A DNA stretch of 64,000 nucleotides, taken from the NCBI GenBank assembly GCA_050184075.1, contig JBFXAS010000002.1, forward strand, positions 15,831-79,830, in the 5' to 3' direction. A model generated the notes under the pieces. That model made no database searches. It worked only from the letters and a program-made list of their open reading frames with translations, and was not told where the DNA came from. This DNA is from Gemmatimonadales bacterium. Its GTDB lineage: Bacteria; Gemmatimonadota; Gemmatimonadetes; Gemmatimonadales; GWC2-71-9. A program made the position numbers and the translations under genes. Positions 48,754 to 60,464 of the stretch are shown here, in pieces. Position 1 is the first letter of the stretch. Every line of letters starts with the position of its first letter.

Positions 48754-50733
48754 CTAACGTCGCCGCTCGAGCTCGCGCAACGCCTGCTGGTGACCGGCCG
48801 CCGCAGCCCTCCGCAGCCATGCCATGCCCGTCTCGTTGGAGCGATCGACCCCCCGCCCGTTGAAGTAGAGCAGCGCGAGCTGGTACTGCGCCTCCGGGCT
48901 GCCGGCCTGCGCGGCTCGATCGAACCAGGACCTGGCGCGCGCATAGTCGCGAGCGACGCCATCGCCGTCGGCGTAGCGGCGGCCGAGCAGGACCTGGGTC
49001 TGGACATCGCCGGATCCCGCCGCCTTGACGAACCAGTCGAGCGCGGCCGTGCGGTCGCGCACCACGCCGAGTCCCTGGTCGAGTCGATGCGCGACGATCG
49101 GGAAGGCCCGCGCGAAACCGGCGTTGGCCGCCCCGAGGTAGCGGGTGGTCGCGAGCGTCGGATCCAGCGCGGCGCCGTTGCCGGTGCTGTAGCGCTCGCC
49201 AAGCTCGAAGAGCGCGAGCGCGTCGCCCGCGCGCCCGGCGGCCTCGAGGTGCCTGAGGGTTTCGCCCGGGTTGAGAGCGGCCGCGCGCCCTTCGCGGATC
49301 AGCGAGGCCATGCGGAGGCTGGCCCGAGCGCTGCCGCTGTCCGACTCGATCGCGCAGCGGCCCAGCGCGGAGGCCCATTCCTGCCGGCCGTAGAGCGCCT
49401 CGCAGTCCGGCGGCGGCGCCACCGGCTCGGCCGGGGCGGTATCGCGCGCGGGGGCTCGGCGGGTCGTGTCGGGGACCGGGTCGGGGTCGATCGCCAGGGT
49501 GGCGGTGCCGGTGTCCCGTCGCGCAGCCGGCGGCGGCGGTGGCGGGGCGACCGCCGGGGTGACCGGGGGCACGGCGGGGGGCGGCGGCGCCGGGCTCGCC
49601 GCGGGCGCAGGGCCCAGCTCGCCCTGCCGGCTTGCGTTGCTCCGCACCGCCATCGCGACGGCGACCACGACGGTGGTGAGGACCGCCGCGCCGGCAGCCC
49701 ACCGCCTGACCACGGGTCCGCGCGGTGCCGGCGGCAACCCGGCGGTCGGCGAGAGCTCGCCCTTGAGGGCGGCGGCGAAGTCCTGAGTGGTGGCGAAGCG
49801 CCGGGCGGGATCCTTCTCGAGCGCCCGATGGAGCGTGGCGACCAGCGAAGGCGGCAGCCCCGGCGCAAGCCGGTCGAGCCGCGGGGCGGACTCGAGCAGG
49901 AGCTTGGTGATCACGGCGCGTGCCGTCTCACCGCCGAAGGGCACCTGGCCGCCGAGCATCTGATAGCCGATTACCGCGAGCGAGTACTGATCGGTCCGAT
50001 GGTCGACCGTGGCCTCGCCGCTCGCCTGCTCCGGGCTCATGTACTGCGGCGTGCCGACGACCACGCCCGTGCCGGTGAGATCGCGGTCGCCTCCGTCCAT
50101 CGCCTTGGCGATCCCGAAGTCCATCAGCCGGACCCGGCGGTCCCGACCCTCGAGGACGATGTTCTCGGGCTTGATGTCCCGGTGGACCACGCCGGCCTCG
50201 TGGCTCGCGGTGAGCGCCGAGGCCGCCTCCAGCAGGATCCGGGTGGCTTCGGCCACCGGGATCCTGCCCTCCCGGCTCATCGCTTCCTTCAGACTCTCGC
50301 CCTGGATGAGCGGCATGACCAAGTAGCACACGCCACCCGCCTCGCCGACGTCGTAGACCGGGACGATGTGGGGGTGGTTGAGGGCGGCCACCGCCAGCGC
50401 CTCGCGCCGGAAACGGGCCAACAAGTTTGGCGTGACGATCAGGTCGGGCCGGAGGACCTTGATGGCGAGTTCGCGATTGAGCTTGAGGTCCTGGACCGCA
50501 AAGACCTCGGCGTAGCCTCCGCGCCCGATCAGCCGTCCAAGTCGGAAGTTGGGGCCGAGGATCCGTTGGAGGCGTTCAGGCTCGGTGGCGTAGCTCGCCG
50601 ACTGGCGGCCGGGCTCCAGCTCGGCCGACGGCTCGCCAAAAATCTGGGTAGCCGTAGCCGACCCGCATTGCGCGCAGAAGGCCGCGTCGTCGGGCAACTC
50701 GGTTTCGCAGGAGGGGCAAGTTCTCGCGGGCAC
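48754..50733 (-). CDS. Ser/Thr protein kinase with an N-terminal zinc ribbon, a TM segment and C-terminal Sel1 (TPR-like) repeats
   Basis: GTG start. CPSCETELPDDAAFCAQCG, then Hanks kinase motifs (AIKVL, HRDIKPENI, DFGIAK, GTPQYMSPE). A Pro-rich linker and TM follow, then Sel1 repeats (ALFELGERYSTGNGA..., QYQLALLYFNGRGV...). Confidence 0.9.
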   Translation of the reverse strand: MPARTCPSCETELPDDAAFCAQCGSATATQIFGEPSAELEPGRQSASYATEPERLQRILGPNFRLGRLIGRGGYAEVFAVQDLKLNRELAIKVLRPDLIVTPNLLARFRREALAVAALNHPHIVPVYDVGEAGGVCYLVMPLIQGESLKEAMSREGRIPVAEATRILLEAASALTASHEAGVVHRDIKPENIVLEGRDRRVRLMDFGIAKAMDGGDRDLTGTGVVVGTPQYMSPEQASGEATVDHRTDQYSLAVIGYQMLGGQVPFGGETARAVITKLLLESAPRLDRLAPGLPPSLVATLHRALEKDPARRFATTQDFAAALKGELSPTAGLPPAPRGPVVRRWAAGAAVLTTVVVAVAMAVRSNASRQGELGPAPAASPAPPPPAVPPVTPAVAPPPPPPAARRDTGTATLAIDPDPVPDTTRRAPARDTAPAEPVAPPPDCEALYGRQEWASALGRCAIESDSGSARASLRMASLIREGRAAALNPGETLRHLEAAGRAGDALALFELGERYSTGNGAALDPTLATTRYLGAANAGFARAFPIVAHRLDQGLGVVRDRTAALDWFVKAAGSGDVQTQVLLGRRYADGDGVARDYARARSWFDRAAQAGSPEAQYQLALLYFNGRGVDRSNETGMAWLRRAAAAGHQQALRELERRR

Positions 50734-50792: not shown

Positions 50793-52886
50793 TCAAGGAC
50801 GCCGTCTGTCCGCCTCCTTCCTGGCCTCCGCATGGCCCTGCTGTGCCGCCCGGTCGAGCCAGACGAAACCGAGACTGTCTGACTTCTGAACGCCTCGACC
50901 TCGGACGTAGGCCATGCCGAGCTCGTACTGGGCCGCCGTGTGACCCTGCTCGGCGGCCCGGGTGAACCACCTGAACGCCTCGGTCTCGTTCTTCGGCACG
51001 CCCCGGCCGCGCGCGTACATCACGCCGAGGTTGTACTGCGACGCCCGATTGCCCTGCTCCGCAGCTTTCCGGTACCAGAACGCCGCCTCCTGATCCCGGC
51101 GGGGCGACCCGAGCCCCTGCTCGTAGCGCTCGGCCAGCACCGGCCAGGCGGCCTCGATCCCGGCGTCGGCGGCCTGGCGGAGCAGACCCGTCGCCTCCCG
51201 CTCCCGGGCCTCGTCGCCCGGCGTCGCGGCGAGCAGCAGGCCGAGCTGATAGGCGGCGGTCGCGTCGCCGCCGGCGGCCGCTCGACGGTACCAGCTTATC
51301 GCCGCCGAGTCTGAGGCCTCGACGCCGTTGCCATCCTTGTAGAGGACGGCGAGCTGCCGCATCGCGGCGGCGTTCCCGCCTTCGGCTTCGCTCAAACAGA
51401 GACTCGCGGCCGACGTCCAGTTCGCTTCGCGCACGGCCGCGCCACAGGACCTGGGGGCGGGGGGCGGCGGCGGTGGAGACGCCAATCGTTCGGGGCGGGT
51501 CGAGCGTGTCGCGGGCGCCACGGGCGTGGCCGTCGGGCCCGTGGGCGGCGGAGTGGGGATCGTCGAGACGATGGTCGACCCAGCGGTGTCGGTGATGACG
51601 CCGACCGGGGTGGCGGCGGCCACCGCGACGCCGCTGTCGGCCGCCGCGGTCGAGTCGGTCGCACCGGGGACGGACCGAGGAGGACCATTCAGCGCATAGG
51701 CGAGCGCGGCGACCGCGACCACGCCGATTCCCGCGGCGGCGGGGAGCCAGGCGGGCCGCCGCTTGGCCGCCTTGGGAGTCGGCTCGACCGGGGCCGCGGT
51801 GCCGGCGGGTGGTGTCGGCTTCCTGGCGCCCTCGGCCGGGGTCGGCAGCTCGTCGGTCTTCGCGAGCCGGTCGGCCGTGTTGAAGATCGGGGGCCAGTGC
51901 TCCGATCCAGTGAGCGCCTTGGCGAACTCCTCCATCGAGGCGTAGCGGTCCCGCGGCTCCTTCGACAGCGCTTTCTCGATCGCGAAAGCCAGGCTGGCCG
52001 GCACGTCGGGCACCAGGTCCCGGAGGCTCTTCGGGATCCCGACCATCTGCTGGAACAGGATCGCCCGGGTCGATTCGCCGTCGAAGGGCAGCTCGCCGGT
52101 GATCATCTGATAGCCGACCACGGCCAGCGCGTACTGGTCGCTCCGGTGGTCCAGGTTGGGCTCGCCGGCCGCCTGCTCGGGGCTCATGAAGTGCGGCGTG
52201 CCGACCAGGATGCCAGTGCTGGTAAGGCCGGATCCCTCGGCCGAATCCAGCGCTTTCGAGATCCCGAAGTCCATCAGCTGCACCCGCCGGGCCCGGCCCT
52301 CGAGCATGATGTTCTCCGGCTTCACGTCGCGATGGACCACCCCGGCTTCATGGGCGGCCTCGAGGGCGTCCGCCGCCTCGACCAGGATCCGCACCGCCTC
52401 TCGTGGGGGCCGGGGGCCCTCGCGGACCAGCAGCGCCTTGAGGCTTTCGCCCCGGATGAAGGGCATGATCAGGTAGATCATGCCCTCGGCCTCGCCGACG
52501 TCGTAGATCGGGACGATGTGCGGGTTGCGGAGCGCGGCGACGGTCTCTGCCTCGCGTCGGAATCGGGCGATCAACTGCTCGGAGACGGAGAGCTCGCTGC
52601 GAAGCACCTTCAGCGCGAGCTCGCGCTTGAGCCGGCGGTCGTGGAGCAGGAAGACCTCGGCGAACCCGCCGCGTCCGATCAGCTTGCCGAGCTCGTAGTG
52701 GGCGCCGAGGACGGCGTCGAGCCGGGCTAGATCGCGGGAGGGCATCCGGTCGGTCGACAGGGTTCTGACTTCGCCCGTCGTCCGATCGATGCCACTGTGT
52801 GGCGTGGCCGCACCACACATGAAGCAGAAGGCTGCCTCCTCGGGGAGGGGGGTGTTGCAGGAGGGGCAGGCCTTGGTTACGGGCAT
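50793..52886 (-). CDS. Ser/Thr protein kinase with an N-terminal zinc ribbon, a TM segment and C-terminal Sel1 repeats (tandem paralog)
   Basis: CPSCNTPLPEEAAFCFMCG, then ALKVL, HRDVKPENI, DFGISKA, GTPHFMSPE. A TM segment follows, then Sel1 repeats (MRQLAVLYKDGNGV, QYNLGVMYARGRGV, QYELGMAYVRGRGV). Confidence 0.9.
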   Translation of the reverse strand: MPVTKACPSCNTPLPEEAAFCFMCGAATPHSGIDRTTGEVRTLSTDRMPSRDLARLDAVLGAHYELGKLIGRGGFAEVFLLHDRRLKRELALKVLRSELSVSEQLIARFRREAETVAALRNPHIVPIYDVGEAEGMIYLIMPFIRGESLKALLVREGPRPPREAVRILVEAADALEAAHEAGVVHRDVKPENIMLEGRARRVQLMDFGISKALDSAEGSGLTSTGILVGTPHFMSPEQAAGEPNLDHRSDQYALAVVGYQMITGELPFDGESTRAILFQQMVGIPKSLRDLVPDVPASLAFAIEKALSKEPRDRYASMEEFAKALTGSEHWPPIFNTADRLAKTDELPTPAEGARKPTPPAGTAAPVEPTPKAAKRRPAWLPAAAGIGVVAVAALAYALNGPPRSVPGATDSTAAADSGVAVAAATPVGVITDTAGSTIVSTIPTPPPTGPTATPVAPATRSTRPERLASPPPPPPAPRSCGAAVREANWTSAASLCLSEAEGGNAAAMRQLAVLYKDGNGVEASDSAAISWYRRAAAGGDATAAYQLGLLLAATPGDEAREREATGLLRQAADAGIEAAWPVLAERYEQGLGSPRRDQEAAFWYRKAAEQGNRASQYNLGVMYARGRGVPKNETEAFRWFTRAAEQGHTAAQYELGMAYVRGRGVQKSDSLGFVWLDRAAQQGHAEARKEADRRRP

Positions 52887-53081: not shown

Positions 53082-53645
53082 ATGAGCATCATTGCGAGCA
53101 ACATCCGGCGCGGTATGGCCATCATGCACAACGGCGAGCCGTGCCGGGTGCTCGAGTTCCACCACCACACCCCCGGCAATCTCCGGGCCCTGGTTCAGGC
53201 GAAGTTGAGGAAGATCCGGTCGGGCATCCAGTTCGAGCATCGCTTCCGGGCCACGGATTCGCTCGAGGTGGCCGAGCTGGAGACCCACGAGCTGGACTTC
53301 CTGTACAAAGCCGGCGACACCTATCATTTCATGAACGCGGAGACCTTCGACCAGCTCGAGGTCGTCGAGGCCGATCTGGGCGACGACGCGAAGTGGATGA
53401 CCGAGGGGATGCGGATCATGGCCGAGTTCTACGAGGGCCGGCCGATCGGGATCCAGCTCCCGAACTCGCTGGTGCTCGAGGTCGTCGAGACGGCGCCGGT
53501 GATGAAGACCGCGACCAAGTCCGCTTCGTCGAAGCCCGCCACGCTCAACAACGGTATCACGGTCAACGTGCCCGAGTTCATCGAGATTGGCGAGAAGGTG
53601 CGCGTCAACCCGCAGACGGGCGAGTACCTGGATCGGGCCAAATAG
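53082..53645 (+). CDS. efp: translation elongation factor P
   Basis: From ATG 53082 there is full-length collinearity with EF-P (…NGEPCRVLEFHHHTPGNLRALVQAKLR…SSKPATLNNGITVNVPEFIEIGEKVRVNPQTGEYLDRAK). Confidence 0.95.
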   Translation: MSIIASNIRRGMAIMHNGEPCRVLEFHHHTPGNLRALVQAKLRKIRSGIQFEHRFRATDSLEVAELETHELDFLYKAGDTYHFMNAETFDQLEVVEADLGDDAKWMTEGMRIMAEFYEGRPIGIQLPNSLVLEVVETAPVMKTATKSASSKPATLNNGITVNVPEFIEIGEKVRVNPQTGEYLDRAK

Positions 53646-53655
53646 AGGGGTAGCG

Positions 53656-54768
53656 ATGTCGTTGTGGGTGTTGGTCGTGCAGCTGCTGATCTCGTCGGCC
53701 CCGGTGCCGGCGAGCGCGGTTCTGCCGGACACCATCCCCTTCGCTGCGCTGGTCGACTCGCTTTCGGAGTCGGGCGGGTACTTCGACACCGACAATCTGA
53801 TCTCGAACGAGGCCTCCTATCTCCACGTGGCGCCGACCCTCCGCGCCATGGCGGTGACCGGTCAGGCCTATCTCGGCGTTGGGCCGGATCAGAACTTCTC
53901 CTACATCGTGGCCTCCCGGCCGGCGATCGCCTTCGTGCTCGATCTCCGCCGCGACAATCTGCTGCTCCATCTGCTCTACAAATCAGTCTTCGAGACCGCG
54001 CCGACGCGGATCGAGTTCCTGACCCAGCTCTTCGGTCGTCCGGCGCCGGAGCGGCCCGCGGACTGGCGCAGTCGCCCGCTCGACGAGCTCCTCGGCTACG
54101 TCGATACGGTCCGGGTCGATCCCGCGCGTCAGGACCGGCTGCACCGACAGCTGCTCGATCGGATCCGCGGCTACGACATCCCCCTCTCCGCGCAGGATGT
54201 CGCGACGCTGCAACGCTTCCACGGCGAGTTCATGCGCGCTGGGCTCGCGCTCCGGTTCACCAGCTACGGCCGGGGTCCGCGATCCTACTACCCGACCATC
54301 CGCCAGCTCTACCTGGAGCGGGACCTCCTCGGTCGGCAAGCCAGCTTCCTCGCCGAGGAGGAGGGCTACGCCTTCCTGCGCGACCTGGAGCGCCGGGGCC
54401 GCGTCGTCCCGATCGTGGGGGATTTCGGTGGCCTCAAGGCGCTCAAGGGGGTCGGCCGCTTTCTGCGGGCTCACGACCTCACGCTGAGCGTCTTCTACAC
54501 CTCGAACGTCGAGTTCTACATCTTCCGCCAGGGCACCCTGCGGCGATACGTGGAGAACATGCGCGCGCTGCCGTGGAGCGACCCCGGCCTGATCGTGCGC
54601 AGCTATTTCGGCGGTGTGATGGGCCAGACCCATCCGCAGGCGATTCGGGGCTACGCCAGCGCCCAGCTGCTGCAGACCGCGAAGCGCTTCCTCGAGCTCA
54701 CCGGCGACCCCGACGGGATCTCCTACTGGGACGTGGTCACCGTCGGCGCCCTGCCGCTGGAGCGCTAG
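53656..54768 (+). CDS. conserved hypothetical protein with an N-terminal hydrophobic leader
   Basis: ATG 53656, 10 nt after efp. 370 aa with good coding composition (…DNLISNEASYLHVAPTL…YLGVGPDQNFSYI…). I cannot name a family. Confidence 0.7.
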   Translation: MSLWVLVVQLLISSAPVPASAVLPDTIPFAALVDSLSESGGYFDTDNLISNEASYLHVAPTLRAMAVTGQAYLGVGPDQNFSYIVASRPAIAFVLDLRRDNLLLHLLYKSVFETAPTRIEFLTQLFGRPAPERPADWRSRPLDELLGYVDTVRVDPARQDRLHRQLLDRIRGYDIPLSAQDVATLQRFHGEFMRAGLALRFTSYGRGPRSYYPTIRQLYLERDLLGRQASFLAEEEGYAFLRDLERRGRVVPIVGDFGGLKALKGVGRFLRAHDLTLSVFYTSNVEFYIFRQGTLRRYVENMRALPWSDPGLIVRSYFGGVMGQTHPQAIRGYASAQLLQTAKRFLELTGDPDGISYWDVVTVGALPLER

Positions 54769-54846
54769 CGCGTCGCCTGCTGGTCGGTCGCCGCGCCGGC
54801 CGGTATGTTTGGTCCTCTCGCGTCCTCGACGACGGACTCCAGTCAA

Positions 54847-56658
54847 ATGCCGAAGCTCGTTCGCTGGCTCAGCGTCGCCGCGCTGGTCGGCGGGCTCCCG
54901 TCCTGCGGGGAGCCCGTGGCCGACGGCACCATCGTGGTGATGTACGACAACCAGTTCACCAGCGCGGTGGTGCGAGTGCCGGTCGGCGCCCGGGTGACGT
55001 TCCTGAATCGGGGCCGAACCGTCCACAACGCGATCGGGTCGGATGGCGCCTGGCAGACCCCGGACGTGGCCGCCAACTCCGGCGAAGAGGGTCGTGGCGC
55101 CGACGTGGTGTTCGACCGGCCCGGCGTGTACCGGTACCACTGCTCCTATCACGGCACCGCCGGGGGCGAGGGCATGGCCGGTGTGGTCGTGGTGGGGGAC
55201 GCCGACTACAGTCCGAGCCCGAAGGGCCGGATCGAGCCGGCGACCGCGCCGAGCGGCGCGACCCGGCACGTGCCCGCCGACTATCCCACCATCCAGGCCG
55301 CCGTCGATGCCGCCGGCCCCGGAGACCTGATCCTGATCGAGCCCGGGGTCTACCGCGAGGAAGTCACCGTCACCACGCCCTCGCTGGTGCTCCGCGGCAC
55401 CGACCGAAACGCGGTGATCGTGGATGGCGAGTTCGTCCGCGGCAACGGGATCGCCGTCCTGGCCGACGCGGTGGCGGTGGAGAACCTGACCGCCCGCAAC
55501 GCCGTGCTCAACGGCTTCTTCTGGACCGGAGTCACCGGTTTTCGGGGGCGGTACCTGACGGCCTACAACAACGGCGACTACGGCATCTACGCGTTCGGGT
55601 CGACCGACGGCGTGATCGAGGACTCCTACGCCTCGGGCTCGCCGGACTCGGGCTTCTACATCGGTCAGTGCTATCCCTGCCGGGTGATCGTCCGCCGGGT
55701 CGTGGCCGAGCGGAACGGACTCGGCTTCTCGGGCACCAATGCCGGCGGCGAGCTCTACGTGGTCGGCTCGATCTGGCGCCACAACCGCGCGGGGATCGTG
55801 CCTTCGTCGCTCGACGTGGAGCTCGATCCGCCGCAGCGCGAGGCCGTCTTCGCCGCGAATCTGGTGTACGCCAACCACGACCGCGCGGCACCGGCGACCA
55901 AGCTGACCTCGCTCGCGTTCGGAAACGGGATCCTGCTGGCGGGCGCGGTGCGGGACACGATCACCGGCAACGTGGTCCTCGACCATCAGGCCCACGGAAT
56001 CCTGGTGAGCCCGATCCAGGACCGGCTCTACTACCCGCCGCACGACAACGTGATCCGCGACAACGTCGTGCTGGGCTCCGGTCGGGCCGATCTCGCCAAC
56101 GGCGGCCTCGGCGCGACGGGCAACTGCTTCGCGGGCAACGAGCATCGCGCGACGGCGCCGATCGGGCTCGAGGCGCTCCAGGGCTGTCGTGGGCTCCGCC
56201 TGCCCTGGTGGTCGGATCTGGTCCCGCTGGCGTCGATCTTCTACCGCGCGGCCATCGCCGGATCGCTCGAGCTGCCCGACTGGAGGCGGGTGGCGGCTCC
56301 ACCGCCCCAGCCCACGATGCCGGACGCGGCGTCGCTGCCCGCGTCGCTCGCGACCGACCCCTACCGCGCCGACGGCTTCGTGCTCGCCTCCGCGACCCTG
56401 CCGCCGGAGACCGACGCGGTGCTGGCCGAGTTCCGCTCCGGAGCCTGGGCGTTCGACGGCGGCGGGATCGGAGCCCGGATCGTGACGAACGCCACCCTGG
56501 TCGCGTTCCTTGGCGTGCTCGGATGGTGGGTGGCTCGCTCGCGGAGCCGCCGGCCCCGCCGTCACCCCTGGCGGGCCCGGCTCGGCGCCCTGCTCGGCGG
56601 CGCGGCCATCTGGCTCCTCGTGCTCGCAGCCAGCGCGATCGTCTCGGGCAGGATCTGA
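54847..56658 (+). CDS. lipoprotein with an N-terminal type-1 cupredoxin domain fused to a NosD-like right-handed parallel beta-helix, and C-terminal TM helices
   Basis: ATG 54847 gives MPKLVRWLSVAALVGGLPSCG (the ORF maximum starts at 54805). Cupredoxin ligand pattern TVHNA ... YHCSYHGTAGGEGM. Beta-helix region YPTIQAAVDAAGPGDLILIEPGVYREEVTV..., repeated G.y/i.. turns. The last ~60 aa contain two hydrophobic helices. Confidence 0.8.
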   Translation: MPKLVRWLSVAALVGGLPSCGEPVADGTIVVMYDNQFTSAVVRVPVGARVTFLNRGRTVHNAIGSDGAWQTPDVAANSGEEGRGADVVFDRPGVYRYHCSYHGTAGGEGMAGVVVVGDADYSPSPKGRIEPATAPSGATRHVPADYPTIQAAVDAAGPGDLILIEPGVYREEVTVTTPSLVLRGTDRNAVIVDGEFVRGNGIAVLADAVAVENLTARNAVLNGFFWTGVTGFRGRYLTAYNNGDYGIYAFGSTDGVIEDSYASGSPDSGFYIGQCYPCRVIVRRVVAERNGLGFSGTNAGGELYVVGSIWRHNRAGIVPSSLDVELDPPQREAVFAANLVYANHDRAAPATKLTSLAFGNGILLAGAVRDTITGNVVLDHQAHGILVSPIQDRLYYPPHDNVIRDNVVLGSGRADLANGGLGATGNCFAGNEHRATAPIGLEALQGCRGLRLPWWSDLVPLASIFYRAAIAGSLELPDWRRVAAPPPQPTMPDAASLPASLATDPYRADGFVLASATLPPETDAVLAEFRSGAWAFDGGGIGARIVTNATLVAFLGVLGWWVARSRSRRPRRHPWRARLGALLGGAAIWLLVLAASAIVSGRI

Positions 56659-56671
56659 GCCTCGGCGCGAT

Positions 56672-56696
56672 GGCGCTGATTCCTGAGATCAGCGCC
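56672..56696 (+). other. perfect hairpin between the two cupredoxin/beta-helix paralogs
   Basis: GGCGCTGAT-tcctgag-ATCAGCGCC is a 9-bp stem, 14 nt after the stop at 56658. No U-tract follows, so it may be an attenuator or processing site rather than a strong terminator. Confidence 0.3.
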
Positions 56697-56765
56697 CGGC
56701 GCGATTGACCGTCTCTTCATCGACCGGTAGCTTGGGCACAGCCACGCCCTCCCTGGAGGCGATTC

Positions 56766-58379
56766 ATGGCACGACCCCGGGTGCGCCTCGCGGCCGCCGA
56801 CTCCTTCGCTCGCTCGGTCCTGGTCCTCGCGCTCGCCGGCTCGCTCGCGAGCTGCGGCGCCTCGCATGGTGACCATCAGGTGTTCGTCACCATGGGCGAC
56901 AACGTCTTCTCGCCCCGGGAGATCCGGGTGCCGGTGGGGACCAGGATCCACTTCCGCAACATGGGCGGCACCATCCACGACGCGGTCTCGGTCGACGGCA
57001 GCTGGTCGACGTTAGGCGAGGACGGGCAGGGGATGGGGGTCGGCAAGTGGACCGAGGTGGCGTTCGACACCCCGGGCGTGCATCCCTTCTACTGCCCCTA
57101 CCACGCCACCAAGGACGCCAGCAACGGCATGGTCGGCGTGGTGGTGGTCGGCGACGTCGACTACAGCCCCGGCGGCCGCGCGGGCGGGATGGACGTGGTC
57201 GATCGGGCGAGCGGCATGGTGCGCCGGGTGCCGGAAGAGTATCCCACGATCCAGAGCGGGGTCGACGCGGCGGCCCCGGGTGACCTGGTGCTGATCGCCG
57301 AGGGCACGTATCACGAGGAGATCTACGTCACCACCCCGTCGATCACCCTCCGCGGCACCGACCGGAACCGGGTCATCCTGGACGGCGAGTTCCAGCGCGC
57401 CAACGGGATCCTGGTCTTCGCCAACGCGGTGGCGGTGGAGAACCTCACGGTCCGGCACTACACCCTCAACGGGATCCTCTGGTCCGGGGTAACCGGCTAC
57501 CGCGGCTCCTACCTCACTGCGGTCAACAACGGCGACTACGGGATCTACGCATTCGATTCCTACGAGGGCGTGCTGGACCACAGCTACGGGAGCGGCTCGC
57601 CCGACGCCGGGTTCTACATCGGCGGTTGCCACCCCTGCAAGACCATCCTCGACTCGCTGATCGCGGAGCGGAACGGTGGCGGCTACTCGGGCACCAACTC
57701 GGGCGGCGACCTCTACGTCATCAACTCGATCTGGCGGGACAATCGGGGCGCGGGCATCTCGCCCAACACCTTCGACGTGGAGCCCGACCCGCCGGAGCGG
57801 GAGACGATCATCGTCGGCAACCTGATCACCGGCAACGGCACCGGGATCTCCATCGCCGGCGGCCAGCACAACCTGGTCGAGCGGAACCTGATCCAGGGCA
57901 ATCGCACGGGGATCATGCTGCTCGCGGTCAAGGACCAGCGCTACTACCCGAGCACGAACAACGTGATCCGCGACAACGTGATCCTCGAGTCGTCCCGGAT
58001 CGACCTGGCCACCAGCGGACTCGGCAACGTCGGCAACTGCTATCAGAACAACGTCCATCGCGCTTCGCTCCCCTCCGGCCTGCAGACGCTGCAGCCGTGC
58101 GAGGGATTCCGCCTCCCCGTGGTGGGCGACCTCCGCGCCTACTTCGGCTCGCTCGCCGGGCGCGCGGCGCTGATGAACGGGCGCGACTCGCCCCAGACCA
58201 TCACCTGGTGGAAGACGGTGCCCCACCCCGAGCCGCAGCCGACCATGCCTTTGGGCGCCGACGCGCCGGTTCGGCCACCGGCGCACCCGTTCGACGGCTA
58301 TCCGGTGGATCTCGAGGCGATCGTCACGCCGGAGCCGGTCCGTCCCACGGCCCTCGCCGCGAATCGGGGCCGCCCGTGA
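56766..58379 (+). CDS. lipoprotein with an N-terminal type-1 cupredoxin domain fused to a NosD-like beta-helix (paralog)
   Basis: Lipobox LAGSLASCG. Cupredoxin ligands TIHDA ... FYCPYHATKDASNGM. Collinear with 54847-56658 and, by eye, roughly 60% identical through the beta-helix. It lacks the C-terminal TM helices. Confidence 0.8.
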   Translation: MARPRVRLAAADSFARSVLVLALAGSLASCGASHGDHQVFVTMGDNVFSPREIRVPVGTRIHFRNMGGTIHDAVSVDGSWSTLGEDGQGMGVGKWTEVAFDTPGVHPFYCPYHATKDASNGMVGVVVVGDVDYSPGGRAGGMDVVDRASGMVRRVPEEYPTIQSGVDAAAPGDLVLIAEGTYHEEIYVTTPSITLRGTDRNRVILDGEFQRANGILVFANAVAVENLTVRHYTLNGILWSGVTGYRGSYLTAVNNGDYGIYAFDSYEGVLDHSYGSGSPDAGFYIGGCHPCKTILDSLIAERNGGGYSGTNSGGDLYVINSIWRDNRGAGISPNTFDVEPDPPERETIIVGNLITGNGTGISIAGGQHNLVERNLIQGNRTGIMLLAVKDQRYYPSTNNVIRDNVILESSRIDLATSGLGNVGNCYQNNVHRASLPSGLQTLQPCEGFRLPVVGDLRAYFGSLAGRAALMNGRDSPQTITWWKTVPHPEPQPTMPLGADAPVRPPAHPFDGYPVDLEAIVTPEPVRPTALAANRGRP

Positions 58380-58696
58380 GCGGCTCCTTCCTGACCCTGC
58401 TCTCGCCCCTGACGCCGCTCGGGCTGCTCCACGTGCTCTACGGCTACGTGCTGCCGATCACCATCGTCTGCGTCTGGACCGCGACGGCCGTGCTCGATCT
58501 GGCCAACTCGGAGCGGACCCGTGGAACGACGCTGGCCTGGTCGGCGCTGGTGCTCGGCGTCCCGGTGCTCGGCAGCGTCGGATACCTCCTGTTCAGCCGC
58601 CGCACACTCCCGCCCCGCGTCGCCATCGCCATCGTGGTCGGCGGCCTCGGGATCGTCGGCGCCAGCTACGGGCTCAGCTACGCCCTGATCGGATGA
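58376..58696 (+). CDS. PLDc_N-type small membrane protein
   Basis: GTG 58376 overlaps the upstream stop (GTGA). Motif VWTATAVLDLANSERTRGTTLAWSALVLGVPVLGSVGYLLFSRR, typical of the short 'PLD nuclease N-terminal' membrane domain. Confidence 0.7.
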   Translation: MSGSFLTLLSPLTPLGLLHVLYGYVLPITIVCVWTATAVLDLANSERTRGTTLAWSALVLGVPVLGSVGYLLFSRRTLPPRVAIAIVVGGLGIVGASYGLSYALIG

Positions 58697-58700
58697 CCTC

Positions 58701-59009
58701 ATGACCGATACCGCCGCTCTGCCTTCGAGCTGGCAGGTGCTCCTCGACCTGTACGGCTTCGTGCTGCCGTTCATGCTCTACGCGGCCTGGTCGACGCTCG
58801 TCTTCTGGGATCTTGGCCGTCGCGAGGACCTGAGCGCCGGGGCGACCTCCGGATGGCTCGCCGTCGTCCTGCTGCTGCCCTTCGTCGGCGCGCTGGCCTA
58901 TCTGCTGGCCGCGCGCACGGCGCTGCCCCGCCACTTCCGGGTCTCGGTGGTAAGTGCCGGTGTCGGGATGTACCTGCTGGTGCTGCTCCTTACCGGCGGG
59001 CTCGGCTGA
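58701..59009 (+). CDS. PLDc_N-type small membrane protein (second copy)
   Basis: AWSTLVFWDLGRREDLSAGATSGWLAVVLLLPFVGALAYLLAART, plus one further TM helix. It starts 4 nt after the previous gene. Confidence 0.7.
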   Translation: MTDTAALPSSWQVLLDLYGFVLPFMLYAAWSTLVFWDLGRREDLSAGATSGWLAVVLLLPFVGALAYLLAARTALPRHFRVSVVSAGVGMYLLVLLLTGGLG

Positions 59010-59013
59010 GCCC

Positions 59014-59994
59014 ATGAGGCTGTCGAGGCGCGACGCGATCGTCTTCGGCTCCGGGCTCGCCGCTGGCTCGCTCGGATTGTGGGGCCTGAGCCGCCGCGGG
59101 GCCGCGGAGCCCGAGCGACACCGGGTGAGCCGGCTCGCCGAGCGCGCGAGCTATGGCCACGGGGTCGCGCCACCCCCGGAAGTCGGCCCGCTCGCCCTGG
59201 ATCGGGTCACCCGCCCGCCCGCGCCGACCCGGCCTTTGGAGGGCCGGACCCGAGCGCTCGATCTCGAGGTCGTGGATCAGCGGGTCGCGGTCGCCCAGGA
59301 GCGCTCGCTCGCCGCGTGGACGTTCGGGGGCTCGCTGCCGGGCCCGATCCTCCGGGCGGCCCTCGACGACCCGTTGGAGATCACGCTCAGAAACCGAAGC
59401 GGCGAAGCGCACAATCTCCACTTCCATGGCAGCCACGATGTGGCCGCCGACGGGTGGGAGCCCGTTCCGCCGGGTGGCGAGACGGTGTACCGGCTCTCGG
59501 CCGGACCGATCGGGGTCCATCCCTACCACTGCGACATGACCCCGGACGGCGATCACATCGCCAACGGGCTCTACGGCGCCCTGATCGTCGACCCGCCCGG
59601 CGGGCGCCCGCCCGCTGAGGAGTTCGTCCTGGTGCTCGGCGGCTTCGATACCGACGGCGACGGCCGGAGCGACGTCTTCGGCTTCAACGGGATGTGCGGC
59701 TTCTACGCCAAGTTCCCGCTCAAGGTGGCGGTGGGCAGCCTGGTCCGGGTTTACGTCGTCAACATGGCGGTGGACCAGCCGATGGCGTCGTTCCACCTCC
59801 ACGCGCAGACCTTCGACGTCTATCGGACCGGCACCAGACTCACCCCCGACGATCACACCGACGTGGTGATGCTGGGGCCGACCGAGCGCGCCATCCTCGA
59901 GTTCAGGCTACCCGATCGCGGCCGCTACATGTTCCACCCGCATCAGCGTCACCTCGCCGAGGGTGGCGCGATGGGCTGGTTCGCCGCGGTCTAG
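59014..59994 (+). CDS. Tat-exported two-domain copper protein of the NirK (copper nitrite reductase) / multicopper oxidase family, with non-canonical active-site residues
   Basis: ATG 59014 gives MRLSRRDAIVFGSGLAAGSLG (Tat). It is collinear with NirK blocks: AWTFGGSLPGP, HNLHFH, VHPYHCDMTPDGDHIANGLYGALIV, FHLHAQ and MFHPHQRHLAEGGAMGWF. Confidence 0.8.
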   Translation: MRLSRRDAIVFGSGLAAGSLGLWGLSRRGAAEPERHRVSRLAERASYGHGVAPPPEVGPLALDRVTRPPAPTRPLEGRTRALDLEVVDQRVAVAQERSLAAWTFGGSLPGPILRAALDDPLEITLRNRSGEAHNLHFHGSHDVAADGWEPVPPGGETVYRLSAGPIGVHPYHCDMTPDGDHIANGLYGALIVDPPGGRPPAEEFVLVLGGFDTDGDGRSDVFGFNGMCGFYAKFPLKVAVGSLVRVYVVNMAVDQPMASFHLHAQTFDVYRTGTRLTPDDHTDVVMLGPTERAILEFRLPDRGRYMFHPHQRHLAEGGAMGWFAAV

Positions 59995-60011
59995 CCCCCG
60001 GCGGAGAGTCC

Positions 60012-60464
60012 TCACTTCTTTCGCGAGATTGTCCAGACGTAGGCCGAAACGGCCCGGATGTCCGGGTCGGAGAGATTCATCGCTCCGCCGCGCGGGTGCA
60101 TCGCCAATCGGTAGGAGCGATTCCGGATCCTCGACTCGGGCACGCCGGTGGTCACCACCCGGACGATCTCCTCGTAGCTCCCGCCGATCTGTAACCAGCC
60201 GCCGCGCACCAGACTCGGTCCAAGCTGCCCACCCCCGCCGCCAGGGCCGTGACAACGGGCGCAGGCGCCGTTGGAGTAGACGCTCCGCCCGCGGGCGACC
60301 ATCTGATCGTCGACCCCGTCCGGCAGCGAGGTCGCCGCCGGCGCCACTTCGGCCGTCGGCATCGAGCCCGCGTCGGTGGCCGTGGCGCGCGAGGAGCCGC
60401 ACCCCGCGGCGGCACCGAGCACCGCGGCGATGGCCAAGCCTGACAACGTGTCCCTCATCGGCAA
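60012..60464 (-). CDS. class I c-type cytochrome lipoprotein
   Basis: Lipobox GAAAGCGS, haem motif CARCH and a downstream Met (LAMHP). 150 aa, convergent with the copper protein gene. Confidence 0.8.
   Translation of the reverse strand: MPMRDTLSGLAIAAVLGAAAGCGSSRATATDAGSMPTAEVAPAATSLPDGVDDQMVARGRSVYSNGACARCHGPGGGGGQLGPSLVRGGWLQIGGSYEEIVRVVTTGVPESRIRNRSYRLAMHPRGGAMNLSDPDIRAVSAYVWTISRKK

Follow-up and report, generated by a model that had tools for sequence, protein, structure and literature searches.

A conserved blue-copper and beta-helix gene cluster with a two-domain multicopper oxidase in a Gemmatimonadales bacterium

A 64,000-nucleotide stretch of DNA from a Gemmatimonadales bacterium (GenBank assembly GCA_050184075.1, contig JBFXAS010000002.1, positions 15,831 to 79,830), referred to here in its entirety as the window, carries a cluster of genes for extracytoplasmic copper proteins. 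The cluster encodes two paralogous lipoproteins (A1 and A2), in each of which a cupredoxin domain is fused to a right-handed beta-helix, two small membrane proteins of the PLDc_N family (B1 and B2), and a two-domain multicopper oxidase (2dMCO). It is a real and widespread copper system, the whole set being conserved in at least five phyla, and it is not a chance assembly, since the gene order recurs across phyla. While the folds themselves are familiar, the conserved combination of a type-1 cupredoxin and beta-helix with PLDc_N and a dedicated 2dMCO is new. We tentatively favour a role as a membrane-anchored extracytoplasmic blue-copper redox relay ending at the 2dMCO, which would reduce O2. 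A first-pass annotation, made from the sequence alone, had proposed a self-contained extracytoplasmic copper module, and this view is supported.

Occurrence and conserved neighbourhood

Homologs with E values of 1e-5 or lower number more than 4,300. Relatives of the blue-copper/beta-helix proteins are encoded by no fewer than 516 species-level genomes, and a profile built from the beta-helix only matches 409 clusters of proteins (50% identity) at E values of 1e-30 or lower. The top 80 genomic loci come from Gemmatimonadota, Steroidobacteraceae and other Pseudomonadota, Leptospira, SAR11 (Pelagibacteraceae), Acidimicrobiia, Nitriliruptoria, Acidobacteriota and Limnocylindria; the many Leptospira carriers are cultured and include species of the pathogen clade. 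The nearest relatives are in the Gemmatimonadota.

The oxidase was scored as linked where tblastn with the window proteins placed a 2dMCO on the same strand and no more than 2 kb downstream of the fusion gene. This is the case at 53 of 70 assessable loci, or at 53 of 60 when SAR11 is set aside. Every assessable locus has the linkage in Leptospiraceae (10/10), Gammaproteobacteria (4/4) and Acidobacteriota (2/2), as do most of those in Gemmatimonadota (17/19) and Actinomycetota (19/23), and none of those in SAR11 (0/10). The association is reciprocal, in that searches starting from the oxidase found the fusion gene directly 5' of it in all three long contigs. A SCO1/SenC gene lies 3' of the oxidase in 9 of the 10 Leptospiraceae loci and in 2 of the 4 from Gammaproteobacteria. 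The first-pass annotation had allowed that the beta-helix might show no conserved linkage to copper proteins, or that the neighbourhood might not be conserved in any related genome; instead, the linkage of fusion, PLDc_N and 2dMCO is kept across phyla.

Beyond PLDc_N, 2dMCO and SCO1, an all-against-all comparison of flanking open reading frames (ORFs) found no neighbours conserved across phyla, and scans of the Leptospira and SAR11 neighbours for regulators and transporters gave no functional hint. No ABC transporter, nosZ or NosL partner is conserved nearby; in the window the cluster is flanked by a DUF7790 gene and a cytochrome c gene, and no NosZ, NosF, NosY or NosL profile search of the whole 64 kb was made. 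Two unrelated genomes (L001 1-4089; L002 17352-19547) have genes for pyrroloquinoline quinone (PQQ)-dependent dehydrogenases, some with a cytochrome c, no more than 10 kb from the fusion, and a few fusion proteins (P0049, P0076 and one member of alignment A8) match Pfam PF23509 (MSMEG_3727, PQQ-associated). These links may mean that small membrane segments accompany periplasmic redox enzymes, or they may be coincidental.

The cupredoxin/beta-helix core

The way in which domains are fused or split differs among lineages. Acidobacteriota and some Acidimicrobiia encode the cupredoxin on its own, in an ORF whose frame differs from that of the beta-helix ORF and which overlaps the beginning of the latter. 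A sister clade was recovered by a metagenome scan seeded with four cupredoxin-less beta-helix sequences (80 loci, L083-L162), and at 64 of these loci a cupredoxin ORF stands beside the beta-helix or is fused to it; 58 of the 64 cupredoxins keep the C-x2-H-xn-M signature, usually as C-x2-H-x6-M. A DUF1996 gene then follows in 37 of the 80 loci, giving a three-gene set of small type-1 cupredoxin, beta-helix and DUF1996 in, for example, L097 (5470-8343), L096 (5332-8309) and L154 (5539-8353). DUF1996 has been tied to stress and metal-ion responses in a fungal study (PMC4738358). A multicopper oxidase (MCO) is essentially absent from these 80 loci, the sole exception being one weak match on the opposite strand in L148.

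SAR11 keeps the fusion and PLDc_N only, and the pair is followed by an NlpC/P60 gene. Contigs from seawater metatranscriptomes (runs X11-X14) cover the SAR11 fusion and PLDc_N genes (L030 7932-9954, from a single-cell genome) and barely cover the flanks, including NlpC/P60; assembled contigs of this kind show presence only, and they suggest that the two genes are expressed in situ. Since SAR11 retains the pair without an oxidase, and metatranscriptome contigs cover both genes, the core would have a function of its own. The fusion and split patterns keep the type-1-copper cupredoxin and this particular beta-helix together, and we therefore regard these two as the obligate core, and PLDc_N, 2dMCO, SCO1 and DUF1996 as clade-specific partners.

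The A1 and A2 lipoproteins

A1 and A2 are 50% identical (E 8e-161) and have the lipoboxes LPSC and LASC, the cysteine of which is invariant in 63 homologs. Both exceed the cut-off of 21.2 bits for Pfam Copper-bind (PF00127), with scores of 24.8 and 23.4 bits, and both pass Pfam Beta_helix. The putative type-1 copper ligands H71, C110, H113 and M122 (A2 numbering) are likewise invariant in the 63 homologs. Type-1 copper sites of the H/C/H/M kind are electron-transfer centres, and the cupredoxin domains of A1 and A2 are predicted to be type-1 (blue) copper domains of the plastocyanin/azurin family. Thus the description of the pair in the first-pass annotation as paralogous type-1-copper/beta-helix lipoproteins stands, as does the ligand spacing that it gave (C-x2-H-x7-M) for A1; that of A2 is C-x2-H-x8-M. 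The two-helix membrane tail of A1 spans residues ~540-599. An AlphaFold2 model of A2 has a mean predicted local distance difference test score (pLDDT) of 90.7 and a predicted template modelling score (pTM) of 0.86.

Conservation of the beta-helix equals or exceeds that of the cupredoxin, 36% of beta-helix columns being conserved at 90% or more vs 24% of cupredoxin columns, and it is for this reason that a role as a passive spacer is disfavoured. Its signature turns are NNGDYGIYAF, SGSPDxGFYIGxCxPC, GYSGTNSGG, DxExxPPxRE, GNCF and LQGC, and its invariant residues include Y258, D280, Y284, T310, N311, D337, E339 and R345. The near-invariant cysteines look like structural disulfides, because they are lost together in four representatives (identified below), and a redox-active CxPC acting as a thiol oxidase or Cu(I) site is disfavoured on the same grounds.

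The beta-helix had been called NosD-like, and this is not borne out. Against the NosD_copper_fam model (TIGR04247), A1 and A2 score 38.7 and 45.8 bits vs a cut-off of 300, and the alignment is restricted to model positions 1-67, an N-terminal cap with a motif that is common to pectinesterases also. For Pfam NosD (PF05048, gathering score 23.6 bits) A2 scores 37.4 bits and A1 23.3 bits, and scores at least as high come from the Beta_helix and DUF1565 models, which describe the same fold. The family profile matches the solved NosD structure 7O0Y_A with an E value of only 2.1, and NosD is not among the top 50 Foldseek matches of the A2 model. The best of those matches are the mannuronan C5-epimerases AlgE4 and AlgE6, PL6 alginate lyases and Pel9A, with E values of 5e-10 to 1e-5, template modelling (TM) scores of 0.3-0.56 and identities of 10-16%. 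No solved structure related to the beta-helix at the sequence level was found. The best NCBIfam match, TIGR03805 beta_helix_1, reaches 87.3 and 67.3 bits and is thus probably a sister family, though both scores lie below the cut-off of 141.5. AlgE and AlgG epimerases have the catalytic motif DPH(D/E); DPH is absent from A1 and A2, where the corresponding turns read NGDYG, SGSPD and YSGTN.

The domains fused to the beta-helix in 52 long representatives are restricted to cupredoxin, PLDc_N, PD40 and a tandem beta-helix. Five members of the beta-helix family of ~750-800 amino acids (P0322, P0336, P0337, P0357 and P0358) have no cupredoxin; a membrane segment is present in them, and their C-terminal part is a TolB-like PD40 beta-propeller. 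P0241 is a tandem double beta-helix.

The two-domain multicopper oxidase

The oxidase has a twin-arginine motif (SRRDAI) for export by the twin-arginine translocation (Tat) pathway and consists of Cu-oxidase_3 (59.2 bits) and Cu-oxidase_2 (73.7 bits) domains. Its best solved relatives are 3GDC (E 7e-58) and 7RAB (E 3.6e-47), followed in third place by Nmar_1354 (PDB 9CCK, E 6.6e-36), and nitrite reductases rank later. A type-1 copper site with the pattern H...HC...H...L, in which the axial residue is Leu, is evident in domain 1, and the motifs expected of a trinuclear site are HxH (within HNLHFH), HC(D) (within HC(D)x7Hx4L), and HLH and HPH in domain 2.

The first-pass annotation described this protein as a Tat-exported two-domain copper protein of the NirK family. 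The Tat motif and the two copper domains are confirmed, and NirK identity is rejected: TIGR02376 gives 83.4 bits vs a cut-off of 296.3, in domain 1 only. In NirK the catalytic Asp is the fourth residue of the first motif (H-N-x-D-x-H). The window protein has His at this position (HNLHFH), and H-x-x-H-x-H is found throughout the oxidase family. We conclude from these patterns that the 'NirK-like' protein is a predicted type-C two-domain multicopper oxidase. Many members of the same clade are labelled automatically as 'nitrite reductase (NO-forming)' in Joint Genome Institute data (P0134, P0153, P0169, P0179, P0188 and others). Because the ligand pattern is of the MCO type these labels are probably mis-annotations, and they could inflate metagenome nirK counts.

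An acidic residue in the HC(D/E) motif is shared by the window oxidase and 14 oxidases that follow A1-type genes in other Gemmatimonadota (L012, L015, L016, L018-L020, L024, L034, L043, L044, L050, L057, L059 and L069), the motif being H-C-E once; all of the remaining listed cluster oxidases keep HCH. In the enzymes with H-C-D/E in place of H-C-H, a conserved carboxylate would thus serve as one of the type-3 copper ligands. At the axial type-1 position, most cluster oxidases have Leu and those of Gammaproteobacteria have Met.

The PLDc_N membrane partners

B1 and B2 score 33.2 and 30.4 bits against Pfam PLDc_N (PF13396; cut-off 23.3) and are paralogs with 36% identity. Their earlier assignment to PLDc_N is thus sound; the two transmembrane segments given to each are not, as both have three hydrophobic segments. 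PLDc_N has a gene of its own in the window, in SAR11 and in some members of the Gammaproteobacteria and Gemmatimonadota, and is fused to the C terminus of the beta-helix in Leptospira (a 673-amino-acid ORF), in most Actinomycetota, in Acidobacteriota and in P0107.

Organization of the locus in the window

All six genes described by the first-pass annotation were confirmed from the ORF list and by direct reading of the sequence (Table 1), as was the tight packing of the same-strand genes from position 58376 on. B1 starts with a GTG that lies inside the GTGA ending A2, giving a 4-nt overlap, and gaps of 4 nt separate B1 from B2 and B2 from the oxidase gene. A ribosome-binding site, GGAGG, is located 7 nt 5' of the A2 ATG. 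The G+C content is ~70% throughout and a compositional break is absent. The window sequence derives from a landfill metagenome and occurs in DNA runs only.

Table 1. Features of the copper gene cluster and its surroundings, in window coordinates
Feature	Position	Strand	Description
Kinase-type gene 1	48754-50733	-	Tandem paralog of kinase-type gene 2
Kinase-type gene 2	50793-52886	-	Tandem paralog of kinase-type gene 1
DUF7790 gene	53587-54768		DUF7790 / LIC_10091 family
Terminator-like hairpin	54778-54805	+	Between the DUF7790 gene and A1
A1	54847-56658	+	603 amino acids; lipoprotein with N-terminal type-1-copper cupredoxin (predicted), right-handed beta-helix and C-terminal two-helix membrane tail
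Inverted repeat	56672-56696		Perfect 9-bp repeat with 7-nt loop
A2	56766-58379	+	537 amino acids; lipoprotein paralogous to A1, with cupredoxin and beta-helix and without the membrane tail
B1	58376-58696	+	106 amino acids; PLDc_N membrane protein
B2	58701-59009	+	102 amino acids; PLDc_N membrane protein
2dMCO	59014-59994	+	326 amino acids; predicted two-domain multicopper oxidase with Tat signal
Cytochrome c	60012-60464	-	150 amino acids; monohaem, CARCH motif; convergent, possibly a lipoprotein

Two sub-types of the system can be recognized among the Gemmatimonadota. In the A1 type, the fusion protein has a two-helix tail, a separate PLDc_N is lacking, and an HC(D/E) oxidase follows directly; in the A2 type, PLDc_N is either separate or fused and is followed by an oxidase with canonical HCH. 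The window has A1, then A2-B1-B2, and then a single oxidase of the HCD type, an HCH-type oxidase being absent from the 64 kb. In this order, the A2-B1-B2 block stands between A1 and what is apparently the A1 oxidase. The duplicated fusion beside a copper protein, to which the first-pass annotation drew attention, is present in the window and is not a general feature but peculiar to this genome. Not one of the 82 first-set loci has tandem fusion genes; in the sister-clade set, L150 has two beta-helix copies.

The hairpin between the DUF7790 gene and A1 is likely to be the 5' boundary of the operon. The DUF7790 gene is also found 5' of the fusion in four further Gemmatimonadota loci (L012, L017, L018 and L059), an adjacency that probably reflects lineage synteny rather than membership of the module, and it is probably outside the module because the hairpin separates it from A1. 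The 107-nt spacer between A1 and A2 contains an inverted repeat, GGCGCTGAT ... ATCAGCGCC, which lies 14 nt past the A1 stop codon; a T-tract is absent 3' of the repeat. Processing or attenuation between the two paralogs may be its role.

At the other end, the stop codons of the oxidase and cytochrome c genes are 17 nt apart. The earlier description of the cytochrome c as a convergent lipoprotein neighbour holds as to its position; the protein has one CARCH haem motif and a weak lipobox (AAGC). The gene is not conserved beside the cluster at other loci, and its inclusion in the module is rejected. Further upstream, the products of the two kinase-type genes, read by eye, have a Ser/Thr kinase domain preceded by a Cys-rich, zinc-ribbon-like motif at the N terminus and followed by a Pro-rich linker and, at the C terminus, Sel1-like repeats.

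Possible functions

The redox relay is favoured because an invariant H/C/H/M site adjoins a conserved beta-helix and, in most lineages, a dedicated MCO, and because Nmar_1354 offers a precedent. The A proteins would be held at the membrane by their lipid anchor, with further anchoring provided in trans by B1 and B2 for A2 and by the built-in two-helix tail for A1. The type-1 copper of the cupredoxin would act as a one-electron relay from the beta-helix, or from a ligand that this binds or oxidises, to the 2dMCO, whose own type-1 copper would pass the electrons to the trinuclear site for reduction of O2 to water. SCO1 would supply copper where it is present (Leptospira and some Gammaproteobacteria). 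In the lineages without an oxidase, SAR11 and the DUF1996 sister clade, a different acceptor would receive the electrons from this core. What we infer in this scheme is the direction of electron flow, a direct contact between cupredoxin and oxidase, and a catalytic or substrate-binding role for the beta-helix.

Several points weigh against a relay. The beta-helix shows no evident cofactor or metal site, and the 63-homolog alignment contains no invariant His in it. Its CxPC cysteines and a third cysteine are jointly lost in P0272, P0320, P0326 and P0365, where the fourth is unaligned; these four retain the Tyr/Asp/Tyr/Asn/Asn positions, and ordinary stacking or ladder roles in a beta-helix could account for the invariant Tyr, Asp and Asn residues that are left. 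The fold resembles that of polysaccharide epimerases and lyases, which are not redox enzymes. Versions of the beta-helix fused to cytochrome c would be expected of a redox enzyme with interchangeable electron-transfer modules, and the 52 long representatives include no such version, nor any with another electron-transfer domain in place of the cupredoxin. A protein donor is not normally needed by MCOs, which oxidise their small substrates directly, and the window oxidase, with HCD for HCH, has seven of the eight canonical trinuclear-site histidines.

A related proposal, which we consider rather unlikely, is that the cupredoxin/beta-helix pair constitutes an unrecognised class of extracytoplasmic oxidoreductase, in which the beta-helix would bind and oxidise a substrate and electrons would leave via the type-1 copper to the 2dMCO or, in SAR11 and the DUF1996 clade, to other acceptors. 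Given that the related Nmar_1354 oxidises NH2OH, small nitrogen, sulfur or metal species could by analogy be candidate substrates. Were this class to exist, aerobic electron flow would include a periplasmic branch that is widespread, occurring in SAR11, Leptospira, Actinomycetota and Gemmatimonadota.

Copper delivery or maturation is of similarly low probability. Here a PLDc_N-anchored cupredoxin/beta-helix would take copper from SCO1 or the medium and insert it into the Tat-exported apo-MCO, in the manner of NosL and NosD. The cast does resemble that of the nos system, with a copper-binding lipoprotein, a beta-helix, a membrane partner, a copper chaperone and a multicopper enzyme exported by Tat; A2 exceeds the Pfam NosD cut-off, the oxidase linkage is tight and reciprocal, and NosL is itself a lipoprotein that serves as a dedicated copper chaperone for CuZ assembly (PMC6530538, PMC8457098). 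However, the beta-helix is not NosD, whether judged by NCBIfam, by profile or by fold; an ABC transporter to drive the process is absent; and the beta-helix has no conserved His or Met cluster, its cysteines being dispensable. A classical H/C/H/M type-1 site transfers electrons rather than copper, SAR11 and the DUF1996 clade keep the pair without an MCO, and lineages that need a chaperone encode SCO1 separately.

The genes that would be expected to accompany metal detoxification or homeostasis (CopB, CopC, CopD, CusF, a P-type ATPase and a CueR/CsoR-type regulator) are not conserved nearby, direct reading of the oxidase reveals no Met-rich region, and oligotrophic SAR11 keeps the core pair without the oxidase. 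It is therefore quite unlikely that the MCO, in the manner of CueO or CopA, oxidises cuprous (or ferrous or manganous) ions, with the cupredoxin/beta-helix protein as a tethered metal-binding or oxidising accessory comparable to CopI or CopC. Weak NCBIfam matches to CopA and CueO do occur, but at 44 vs 479 bits and 21 vs 525 bits respectively. Other features would fit such a role: every soluble part is predicted to be a copper protein, SCO1 is linked, TetR-family regulators flank the cluster in Gammaproteobacteria, and a landfill is a metal-rich setting.

Least probable of all is a membrane-tethered beta-helix that acts on or binds glycans, like an epimerase, lyase or adhesin, with copper domains that regulate or oxidatively modify a cell-wall or exopolymer substrate: the structural matches to AlgE4/AlgE6, PL6 lyases and Pel9A, the weak matches to DUF1565 and Pel9A-like families, the TolB-like PD40 propellers on some relatives and the NlpC/P60 gene 3' of the SAR11 pair are offset by the low identity to those enzymes, the missing DPH(D/E) motif, the lack of conserved glycosyltransferase or export genes nearby, and an obligate type-1 cupredoxin pairing that is without precedent among polysaccharide lyases and epimerases.

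Significance

Database names for these proteins are generic ('plastocyanin', 'right-handed parallel beta-helix repeat-containing protein', 'multicopper oxidase domain-containing protein'), and the carriers include SAR11, the most abundant marine heterotroph. Once the substrate is known, a function could be given to a large block of 'plastocyanin' and 'beta-helix repeat' annotations, the 'nitrite reductase (NO-forming)' labels in this oxidase clade could be corrected, the long-open question of a physiological role for type-C two-domain MCOs could be answered, and a new copper-dependent extracytoplasmic oxidation pathway might emerge.

Comparison with known systems

The first-pass annotation held that no characterised pathway of this kind was known, and this agrees with the literature: no description of the system was found under 7RAB, 3GDC, cupredoxin with beta-helix, NosD-like with plastocyanin, Leptospira with MCO, PLDc_N or DUF1996, and the only partial precedent is Nmar_1354. 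This enzyme, of the MCO4 lineage in Nitrosopumilus maritimus (9CCK), is a 2dMCO with a pendant type-1 cupredoxin positioned 13.5 A from the type-1 copper of the oxidase, and it couples NH2OH oxidation to O2 reduction (PMC11761707). It resembles the window system in that its 2dMCO is homologous to the window oxidase and works with an extra type-1 cupredoxin. The cupredoxin, however, is the C-terminal domain of the oxidase, whereas that of the window is part of a separate, beta-helix-fused lipoprotein tied to PLDc_N; Nmar_1354 is also archaeal and without a beta-helix, and NH2OH is not implied as a substrate for the window system.

The type-C 2dMCOs, represented by Arthrobacter sp. 3GDC, by 7RAB and by the Nitrosomonas europaea blue copper oxidase 3G5W, share with the window enzyme the Cu-oxidase_3 and Cu-oxidase_2 domains, a type-1 copper in domain 1 and the HxH motifs of an inter-subunit trinuclear site. 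They differ in that the window enzyme and the 14 A1-type-linked oxidases have HC(D/E), with an axial Leu. To our knowledge, no physiological function has been published for 3GDC.

The NosD/NosL/NosFY system is similar in placing a periplasmic beta-helix, a lipoprotein copper binder and a membrane partner next to a multicopper enzyme exported by Tat, and A2 scores above the Pfam NosD threshold; the window system nonetheless fails the NosD family model, is without an ABC transporter, NosZ and NosL, and has a copper site of the classical type-1 kind. AlgE4 (2PYG), AlgG (4NK6) and PL6 (7O7A) are closest in fold to the beta-helix domain (Foldseek E values down to 5e-10), but at 10-16% identity and with a catalytic motif that is absent from the window proteins, and those enzymes have no cupredoxin or oxidase linkage. 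NirK enzymes with a tethered cupredoxin or cytochrome (2DV6, 3ZIY) have in common with the window system a trimer scaffold of two cupredoxin domains, a domain-1 type-1 copper and a dedicated blue-copper partner held close, whereas in the window oxidase His takes the place of the catalytic Asp and the extra HxH motifs would build a trinuclear, O2-reducing site.

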